Both the position numbers and the translations under genes were made by a program. A stretch of 52,113 nucleotides of DNA, from the IMG/VR virus record IMGVR_UViG_2541047719_000006. One strand, 5' to 3'. Positions 16,885 through 17,038 of the stretch are shown piece after piece; positions within the stretch are counted from its first letter, which is position 1, and each line of letters begins with the position of its first letter. Under the pieces are notes generated by a model that searched no databases, was not told where the DNA came from, and worked only from the letters and a program-made list of their open reading frames with translations. The stretch is from a virus (lineage: Duplodnaviria; Heunggongvirae; Uroviricota; Caudoviricetes).

Positions 16885-16960
16885 GCCGACTTAGCTCAGT
16901 AGGTAGAGCAACTGACTTGTAATCAGTAGGTCACCAGTTCGATTCCGGTAGTCGGCACCA
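16885..16960 (+). tRNA. tRNA-Thr (anticodon TGT)
   Basis: 76 nt ending CCA; 7-bp acceptor stem GCCGACT/AGTCGGC; anticodon stem ACTGA/TCAGT with loop CTTGTAA; GGTAGAGC D-arm and TTCGATT T-loop. Confidence 0.75.
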
Positions 16961-16963
16961 TAT

Positions 16964-17038
16964 GCGGGTATCGTATAATGGCTATTACCTCAGCCTTCCA
17001 AGCTGATGATGCGGGTTCGATTCCCGCTACCCGCTCCA
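16964..17038 (+). tRNA. tRNA-Gly (anticodon TCC), glyT-like
   Basis: 75 nt ending CCA; acceptor GCGGGTA/TACCCGC; anticodon stem TCAGC/GCTGA with loop CTTCCAA; nearly identical to remembered E. coli glyT. Confidence 0.8.

Follow-up and report, generated by a model that had tools for sequence, protein, structure and literature searches.

A widespread prophage cassette of tRNA-Thr(UGU) and tRNA-Gly(UCC), probably derived from the host thrU and glyT genes and transcribed from its own promoter

The subject of this work is a pair of adjacent tRNA genes, tRNA-Thr(UGU) and tRNA-Gly(UCC), lying between a Q-like regulatory gene and the lysis genes in the tailed-phage sequence IMGVR_UViG_2541047719_000006 of IMG/VR, a stretch of 52,113 nucleotides (nt) that is hereafter called the window. 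The results of our analysis indicate that the pair is real, functional-looking, common and already annotated, and that it appears to be one old and widely shared cassette instead of the capture of a single phage. Because ACA and GGA codons are enriched in the late genes of the window and in its toxin genes cdtABC, we consider the supplementation of the tRNAs decoding these codons, by dosage and from a cassette that is probably self-promoted, to be the best and a fairly probable explanation of its presence.

ARAGORN was run on the whole window and called exactly two tRNA genes, both on the plus strand, namely tRNA-Thr(UGU) at 16885-16960 and tRNA-Gly(UCC) at 16964-17038, separated by the trinucleotide TAT at 16961-16963, the diagnostic junction of the fused pair. 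Both belong to the Rfam family RF00005, with scores of 73.8 bits (E = 2e-14) and 65.6 bits (E = 4e-12), respectively, which are far beyond chance given the gathering score of 29; both form full-length, intact cloverleaves in which the anticodon loop has 7 nt and the anticodon is at position 34, and both encode their CCA 3' end. The same two tRNAs are annotated at the same coordinates in the RefSeq record NZ_CP053079.1, which is identical in sequence. An earlier reading of the bare sequence, hereafter the original prediction, was therefore right about the coordinates, the anticodons (TGT and TCC), the 3-nt spacing and the CCA ends, and the predictors reject neither gene. The identity elements of the cognate synthetases can be read in both genes, G1:C72, C2:G71, G35 and U36 for ThrRS and G1:C72, C2:G71, G3:C70, C35, C36 and U73 for GlyRS. 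The possibility that the pair is the remnant of an integration site, that is, a tRNA fragment of attL or attR, was rejected, since both genes are full length and no integrase is adjacent (the prophage's own integrase lies at 1-1236, about 15.6 kb from the pair).

When the window is aligned with the thrU-tyrU-glyT-thrT-tufB region of the host, homology is limited to the two tRNAs. The Thr gene is identical to K-12 thrU along all of its 76 nt (the invariant columns are 50 of 76 once thrT is included), a closer match than the resemblance to host Thr tRNAs that had been claimed, and the Gly gene agrees with K-12 glyT in 73 of 75 positions, in keeping with the near identity stated in the original prediction; the two differences form a single compensated pair of the acceptor stem, C6:G67 being replaced by U6:A67. 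The order of Thr(UGU) followed by Gly(UCC) is that of the host thrU-tyrU-glyT-thrT operon, in comparison with which the cassette lacks tyrU, the 116-nt spacer and thrT and has unrelated promoter and downstream flanks. The TAT spacer corresponds to the base that follows thrU (T) plus the two bases that precede glyT (AT), a match that by itself would be weak evidence for derivation. Overall, the host origin of the pair is well supported by these comparisons, which fit its derivation from the host operon through a deletion of tyrU together with the adjoining spacer. T4-type phages were discarded as a source, their tRNA-Thr and tRNA-Gly being only about 85% identical and not adjacent. The proposed capture from the tufB-operon cluster is thus sustained with respect to host origin but not as an event specific to this phage, because the identical TAT junction is present in at least 113 viral contigs, in 827 E. 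coli genomes and in Citrobacter and Shigella.

The E. coli count comes from a 47-nt junction probe, which is unable to match the operon of the host; of 5426 complete genomes, about 15% (827) contain the fused pair, in 991 places and up to five times per genome. The probe gives a median of one fused place per genome, and the two places counted in the closely related strain 042 likewise agree with a genome that has the host copy and a single prophage copy. In IMG/VR, at least 120 contigs match the junction pattern, 113 of which contain a bona fide pair. A scan of 596 Gb of genome contigs with a 15-nt junction, which gives a lower bound of the taxonomic range, returned matches that, among those listed, are nearly all due to chance in unrelated phyla, the only true pairs among them being those of Citrobacter braakii (L133) and Shigella flexneri (L209). 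The pair as such is already known, both RefSeq and GenBank having annotations of it and the literature on phage phi467 mentioning it; GenBank phages in which it is annotated with the same TAT are vB_EcoS-683R6, the Stx2f phage phi467, PhiR47_1, SerU-LTIIb and JLK-2012, and the TAT spacer is kept in all the related phage copies that were aligned.

Sequence variation was counted over the 113 related copies, which comprise 38 distinct cassette sequences. The Thr gene equals host thrU in 64 of these copies and the Gly gene equals glyT in 50, while the U6:A67 pair of the window is found in 48. Among the stem changes of the 38 distinct sequences, 29 are compensatory, 26 are one-sided and preserve the pair and 26 break a pair, the compensatory ones occurring in both tRNAs. 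This pattern appears to indicate structural constraint in most lineages.

A promoter of the sigma-70 type that is specific to the cassette is predicted at 16794-16821 (plus strand), with TTGCGA as the -35 box, a 16-nt spacer and TATCAT as the -10 box; it lies 63 nt before tRNA-Thr and is preceded by a conserved TTTACA...TTGACG element at 16768-16783. After sorting the upstream regions of related copies into 23 classes of sequences that differ by more than 15%, a promoter-like site was found in 17 classes versus 5.2 expected from shuffles, with the end of its -10 box situated 57-79 nt before tRNA-Thr in 15 classes and 58-68 nt in 13. In the alignment of 19 representatives, with a mean identity of 55%, the TG of the -35 box and the TA..AT of the -10 box are invariant, which makes six of the nine such columns found outside the tRNA, and the first T of the -35 box is nearly so. 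Beginning roughly where transcription is predicted to start, a 5' leader hairpin (GGUUCU..GGGGGA paired with UCCCCU..AGAACC, 16829-16881, plus strand) extends up to 3 nt short of tRNA-Thr; it has a minimum free energy of -20.4 kcal/mol and a z score of -2.2. RNAalifold gives it a consensus of nine pairs, and its two helices show 94% of cells paired across the 19 sequences, versus 23-70% in slid controls; 15 cells are changed on both sides, versus 3.7 +/- 2.5 in shuffles (0/500). Possible roles of this leader are those of a stabilizing 5' stem-loop, a guide for processing or a pause signal.

The unit of promoter, leader and tRNAs lies behind Q genes of the DUF1133, PF06530, PF03589 and PF06323 families, at distances of 365-2649 nt, and behind stxB in phage phi467. 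Because the conserved promoter is present with the pair after stxB and after Q genes of four unrelated families, it would belong to the cassette, and the idea that it is a Q-specific pR' was rejected. An own promoter is thus indicated in the form of a phylogenetic footprint. (Of note, the arrays of four tRNAs described below have a different promoter, TTGCAG-17-TATTAT, which ends 9 nt before the first tRNA). Most likely, therefore, the cassette would be an autonomous unit, open also to read-through by Q-modified polymerase. In the mechanism that we propose, a transcript would start near 16828 from the promoter at 16794-16821 and comprise the hairpin leader followed by the two tRNAs, which would be released by RNase P and 3' trimming; an autonomous unit of this kind would be expressed in the lysogen as well and, after induction, would receive additional transcription when Q-modified polymerase reads into it from upstream.

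The gene that precedes the cassette, at 15986-16522 on the plus strand, encodes a protein of 178 amino acids of the DUF1133 family (PF06576, 341.8 bits), which is the only label that RefSeq gives it. Its second match is a weak one to PF06530, Phage_antitermQ (28.2 bits versus a cut-off of 26), and its best relative of solved structure is Q21 (6JNX/6P18, E = 1.6e-4), with which it aligns at the N- and C-terminal ends; true Q21-type proteins give weak DUF1133 matches in return. Because of these matches and of the position of the gene as the last before the lysis cassette, it seems reasonable, but not proven, to call it Q-like. The tRNA pair lies 362 nt downstream of this gene and 776 nt upstream of the holin gene, between Q and lysis on the late strand; its placement downstream of Q had been noted in the original prediction. 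A gene of a Q family is found within 3.5 kb upstream and on the same strand in 79 of the 113 related copies, with all three recognized Q families (PF06323, PF06530 and PF03589) represented besides DUF1133.

A terminator scan identified a hairpin with a T-tract at 16617-16646 (plus strand), resembling an intrinsic terminator and a candidate for tR', which is similar to AAACCCGCCGATGAGCGGGTTTTTTT, the hairpin upstream of the four-tRNA arrays; of the 79 related copies with a Q gene, 74 have a terminator-like hairpin after the Q stop codon and before the first tRNA. Downstream of the cassette, the first terminator-like hairpin is at 17138-17170 and a second, stronger one, with five G-C pairs and a T8 tract, at 17400-17427 (both on the plus strand), and a hairpin of this type is found within 500 nt of tRNA-Gly, at variable distance, in 91 of 106 related copies. 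The lysis cassette follows at 17815-18988 (plus strand) and consists of the holin gene essD, the endolysin gene rrrD and a gene for an Rz-type protein, according to Pfam (Phage_holin_2_1 and Phage_lysozyme) and RefSeq. The stretch between tRNA-Gly and the holin gene (17039-17814, about 780 nt) is non-coding and varies in length and content among related phages, its first 200 nt after tRNA-Gly being common to roughly half of the related cassettes. An Rfam search of the flanks at permissive E-values found the two tRNAs and no match for the leader hairpin or the 780-nt stretch.

The pair also occurs in longer arrays. ARAGORN applied to the 113 IMG/VR copies found Thr-Gly alone in 49, Met(cat)-Lys(ttt)-Thr-Gly in 31, Met(cat)-Arg(tct)-Thr-Gly in 14 and Asn followed by an uncalled Thr and Gly in five. 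The Met(cat)-Arg(tct) half shares about 90% identity with the tRNA-Ile and tRNA-Arg genes of more than 120 Stx2a phages, Nil2 and phi330, and its version with Lys(ttt) represents an anticodon switch of the upstream Arg tRNA on the same scaffold (L007 7270-7346 versus L013 533-609, minus strand). For these reasons Thr-Gly and the set of Stx phages are modules of the same tRNA arrays of the Q-to-lysis interval, and the one is not an alternative to the other. The original prediction had opposed the pair to the ileZ/argN/argO set typical of Stx phages, a contrast that holds for this window only, for elsewhere the pair stands directly behind an ileZ/argO-like pair, and that fails as a general statement, the pair being present also in the Stx2f phage phi467. 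Anticodon switches have occurred on the thrU-type scaffold too, with TCT (Arg) in the first copy of SerU-LTIIb (L003 1122-1197) and TTT (Lys) in one IMG/VR contig (L086 3480-3555, minus strand).

Codons were counted in the genes of the window, taken by their RefSeq coordinates as 28 late genes, 25 early genes and cdtABC, and compared by the Fisher test with a host sample of 39 core genes. In this comparison, which the original prediction had suggested as a check for the late genes, ACA and GGA are over-represented with respect to the host. ACA accounts for 23.0% of Thr codons in the late genes, 30.0% in the early genes and 35.6% in cdtABC, versus 10.3% in the host sample; for GGA among Gly codons the corresponding values are 17.9%, 24.9% and 36.7%, versus 7.0%. 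The excess of the two codons has p values from 1e-5 to 5e-15, and the odds ratios of late and early genes, 2.6 and 3.7 for ACA and 2.9 and 4.4 for GGA, have p values from 2e-9 to 5e-15; the enrichment amounts to 2.5-fold in the late genes and to 4-6-fold in cdtABC, and ACG and GGG are enriched too. In absolute terms the excess in the late genes is +8.7 per 1000 codons for ACA and +8.4 for GGA, ranks 4 and 5 after AAT, GAT and CAG, which are read by tRNAs with multi-copy genes (asnT/U/V/W, aspT/U/V and glnU/V/W/X, respectively). The major capsid gene contains no AGA, AGG or ATA codons and keeps three ACA, six GGA and seven GGG. A published precedent exists in phage SfI, which has tRNA-Thr(UGU) downstream of Q, as Sf6, ST64T, PS3 and phage 21 also have, and an ACA bias of 17.3% versus 7.1% (Sun et al. 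2013, PMC3636060). According to the explanation that we favor, the tRNAs decoding ACA (and ACG) and GGA (and GGG), each encoded once in the host, would have their gene dosage doubled by the additional copies, so that the AT-richer genes of the phage and its cargo, for instance cdtABC and trkG, would be translated more easily.

Several points weigh against this explanation. The enrichment of AGA (7.0-fold), AGG (6.5-fold) and ATA (4.0-fold) exceeds the 2.5-fold of ACA and GGA, and the prophage has no tRNA for these codons; from codon demand alone one would not have predicted precisely this pair. Early genes are as strongly enriched as late genes, and nothing ties the pair specifically to late expression. 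The host baseline is a single 50-kb core region of strain 042, and we infer promoter activity from conservation only. Any benefit in lytic growth may be moot in this strain, in which the tail-tube gene is frameshifted and other genes are pseudogenes. Finally, the 26 stem changes that break a pair suggest that some lineages are decaying or under different selection.

Other explanations differ in how the cassette would be expressed or in whether it is of any use in translation. The original prediction implied late expression dependent on Q, which in its pure form means that the pair has no promoter of its own and is transcribed only by read-through of the terminator at 16617-16646; its location downstream of a Q-like gene and a terminator, and the recurrence of this arrangement in the relatives mentioned above, fit this proposal. 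The promoter-like site at near-fixed distance in 17 of the 23 upstream classes, with core bases invariant or nearly so, and its presence behind four Q families and stxB, by which it cannot be a Q-specific pR', are against it, as are the four-tRNA arrays with a promoter of their own. Because the promoter and the covarying leader travel with the pair behind four Q families, expression would hardly depend on Q only; the part of the claim that concerns the placement downstream of Q stands, and exclusive dependence on Q is in our judgment rather unlikely. It could also be argued that the pair is a redundant hitch-hiker without translational benefit, a 154-bp block serving as a joint of recombination or undergoing gene conversion by the host. 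The loci homologous to the window do number about 118 across the tRNAs, but about 19 just before them and 46-57 in the 200 nt that follow, the pattern of a mosaic joint; the 64 copies in which Thr equals thrU fit gene conversion, and some copies have broken pairs. Yet compensatory changes in both tRNAs, the conservation of promoter and leader, the enrichment of the codons read and the presence in about 15% of genomes would argue for selection on function, and make a mere hitch-hiker very improbable.

A different proposal is that the cassette replaces host tRNAs destroyed by tRNA-cleaving defence systems, chiefly the OLD nuclease of phage P2. P2 OLD restricts lambda by cutting the anticodon stem of its primary target, host tRNA-ThrU(UGU), at paired CNG motifs and amputating the arm; the attacked cells are rescued by phage genes for tRNA-Thr(UGU) in which the CNG motif is changed and the stem is shorter, whereas the over-expressed host-type tRNA-ThrU gives little or no protection (PMC12445682). 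An independent 2026 preprint agrees in reporting a partial rescue of the OLD-sensitive phages HK97 and HK542 by phage tRNAs. Also in favor of this proposal, arrays with Lys(UUU), the target of PARIS/AriB, are common, and nine of 115 copies combine G42U/C with U43C in the anticodon stem of tRNA-Thr, in at least four sequence backgrounds (among them L004 2995-3070 and, in IMG/VR, L014, L015, L020, L038, L040, L049 and L117). This double change removes two pairs and the 3' CNG motif, and ARAGORN misses some of the copies that have it; it matches the published signature of resistance to P2 OLD, though it could also reflect decay. The window Thr gene, however, is wholly thrU, with the anticodon arm ACUGA CUUGUAA UCAGU of the host, an intact C28-U29-G30 / C40-A41-G42 stem and neither the altered CNG motif nor the shortened stem of nuclease-evading tRNAs, and the host-type arm is retained in 104 of the 115 copies. 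As to tRNA-Gly(UCC) and its 6:67 pair, we encountered no nuclease directed against either. The window copy is thus predicted to be sensitive to P2 OLD. Given its host-type anticodon stem we regard counter-defence as improbable for this copy; the nine variants are a lead for the cassette family and not for the window. Equally doubtful is a more elaborate scenario, in which a family of tRNA morons expressed in lysogens would be locked in an arms race against defences that cleave tRNAs, the Thr gene of the window being the ancestral OLD-sensitive allele from which sister copies escaped or switched their anticodon (Thr to Arg, Thr to Lys), U6:A67 an escape from some undescribed toxin that reads the acceptor stem, and the leader a new element for processing or stabilization. 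Supplementation of ACA and GGA decoders remains our preferred explanation.

The window is 100% identical to positions 2661173-2713285, minus strand, of NZ_CP053079.1, the genome of the urine isolate E. coli K56-43-un, and is a Rac-type lambdoid prophage with CDT-IV cargo; its Rac-type homologue in E. coli 042 is 94-99% identical, with indels, and not collinear. A literature search retrieved no paper that joins the term "Rac prophage" with tRNA-Thr. The prophage contains intR/xisR, ralR/RalA, recET, kilR, the ydaS-V region, QueH, hokD/sok and a toxin of the Doc family, after which come DUF1367, YbcO/DUF1364, DUF1133, the two tRNAs, holin, endolysin, Rz and trkG, and further right the genes from terminase through tail, followed by cdtABC (type IV), a hydrolase and an omptin. 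At the right end, cdtABC lies at 47324-49424 (plus strand) and the genes for the alpha/beta hydrolase and the omptin protease at 49494-50978 and 51163-52113 (both minus strand); these cargo genes are AT-rich (G+C content of 0.42) and the richest of the window in ACA and GGA. The early-right region encodes a tRNA-modification enzyme, the epoxyqueuosine reductase QueH (12642-13307, plus strand; PF02677, 220.6 bits), the substrates of which are tRNAs with GUN anticodons, neither Thr nor Gly. The prophage has two toxin-antitoxin loci of type I, namely RalR plus the small RNA RalA (1557-1928; Rfam 215 bits) and hokD/sok (13375-13700; Rfam 119.6 bits), and the Doc/Fic-family toxin gene (14107-14592) with a small upstream open reading frame (13909-14088; both plus strand) forms an insertion of about 930 nt with respect to the Rac-type prophage of E. 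coli 042. Because the tail-tube gene (31414-32375) and sieB (7400-7889) are frameshifted and two other genes, ynaK (20721-20978) and an N-terminal tail-fibre gene (43188-43554), are partial, this copy of the prophage is probably defective, though its tRNA cassette is intact.

The presence of tRNA genes downstream of Q in temperate coliphages was already known, and the feature is ordinary by itself. What our analysis adds is that a single widespread cassette, apparently stemming from host thrU and glyT, seems to have its own promoter and structured leader, so that, for two single-copy tRNAs that read rare codons, a second and expressed copy may be carried constitutively by about 15% of E. coli strains; here, moreover, the toxin cargo cdtABC of the prophage is 4-6-fold enriched in the codons that the pair reads. 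The role of tRNA-ThrU as the lethal target of P2 OLD makes the variation of prophage Thr genes worth a targeted look, even if the present copy looks sensitive.

With respect to known systems, the cassette shares with the host thrU/glyT operon the gene order, the encoded CCA and the bases of the junction, and differs from it in its prophage location, the U6:A67 pair of tRNA-Gly and the flanks. Its closest phage counterparts are those of phi467 (LN997803; Grande et al. 2016, PMC5189129), SerU-LTIIb (KU052038), JLK-2012 and vB_EcoS-683R6, which are 93-99% identical and share the TAT junction, the position upstream of holin and the annotation of tRNA-Thr plus tRNA-Gly. The phi467 copy has the host-type C6:G67 pair and lies downstream of stxAB, whereas the window copy has U6:A67; the LT-IIb phage SerU-LTIIb has two copies, one with the Thr-to-Arg(TCT) anticodon switch; and in JLK-2012 the pair follows tRNA-Asn and its Thr gene, changed in the anticodon stem, goes uncalled by ARAGORN. 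The phages SfI, Sf6, ST64T, PS3 and 21, lambdoid or P22-like, also have tRNA-Thr(UGU) directly behind Q, paired with Asn instead of the Gly of the window; of this Asn/Thr(UGU) set, JLK-2012 (Asn-Thr-Gly) is the one phage for which the sequence relation with the thrU copy of the window was compared. The ileZ-argN-argO genes found between Q and stx in 933W and Nil2 occupy the same Q-to-lysis slot and likewise read A-ending codons that are rare in E. coli, but they are other tRNA species, which the window lacks despite AGA and ATA being more enriched by ratio; a literature search on their expression retrieved nothing relevant. The tRNA-Thr(UGU) genes of phages that resist P2 OLD (PMC12445682) have the same anticodon and the same host counterpart, thrU, as the window gene, and lambdoid phages are the restricted party in that system.

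Morons are autonomous promoter-gene-terminator units inserted between the genes of lambdoid phages, a concept due to Hendrix and Juhala. The tRNA cassette resembles them in being a discrete module with mosaic flanks, a candidate promoter and terminator-like hairpins downstream, placed in the slot between Q and the lysis genes that is classic for morons; it is unlike the usual moron in that its cargo consists of two tRNAs and not of a protein gene.

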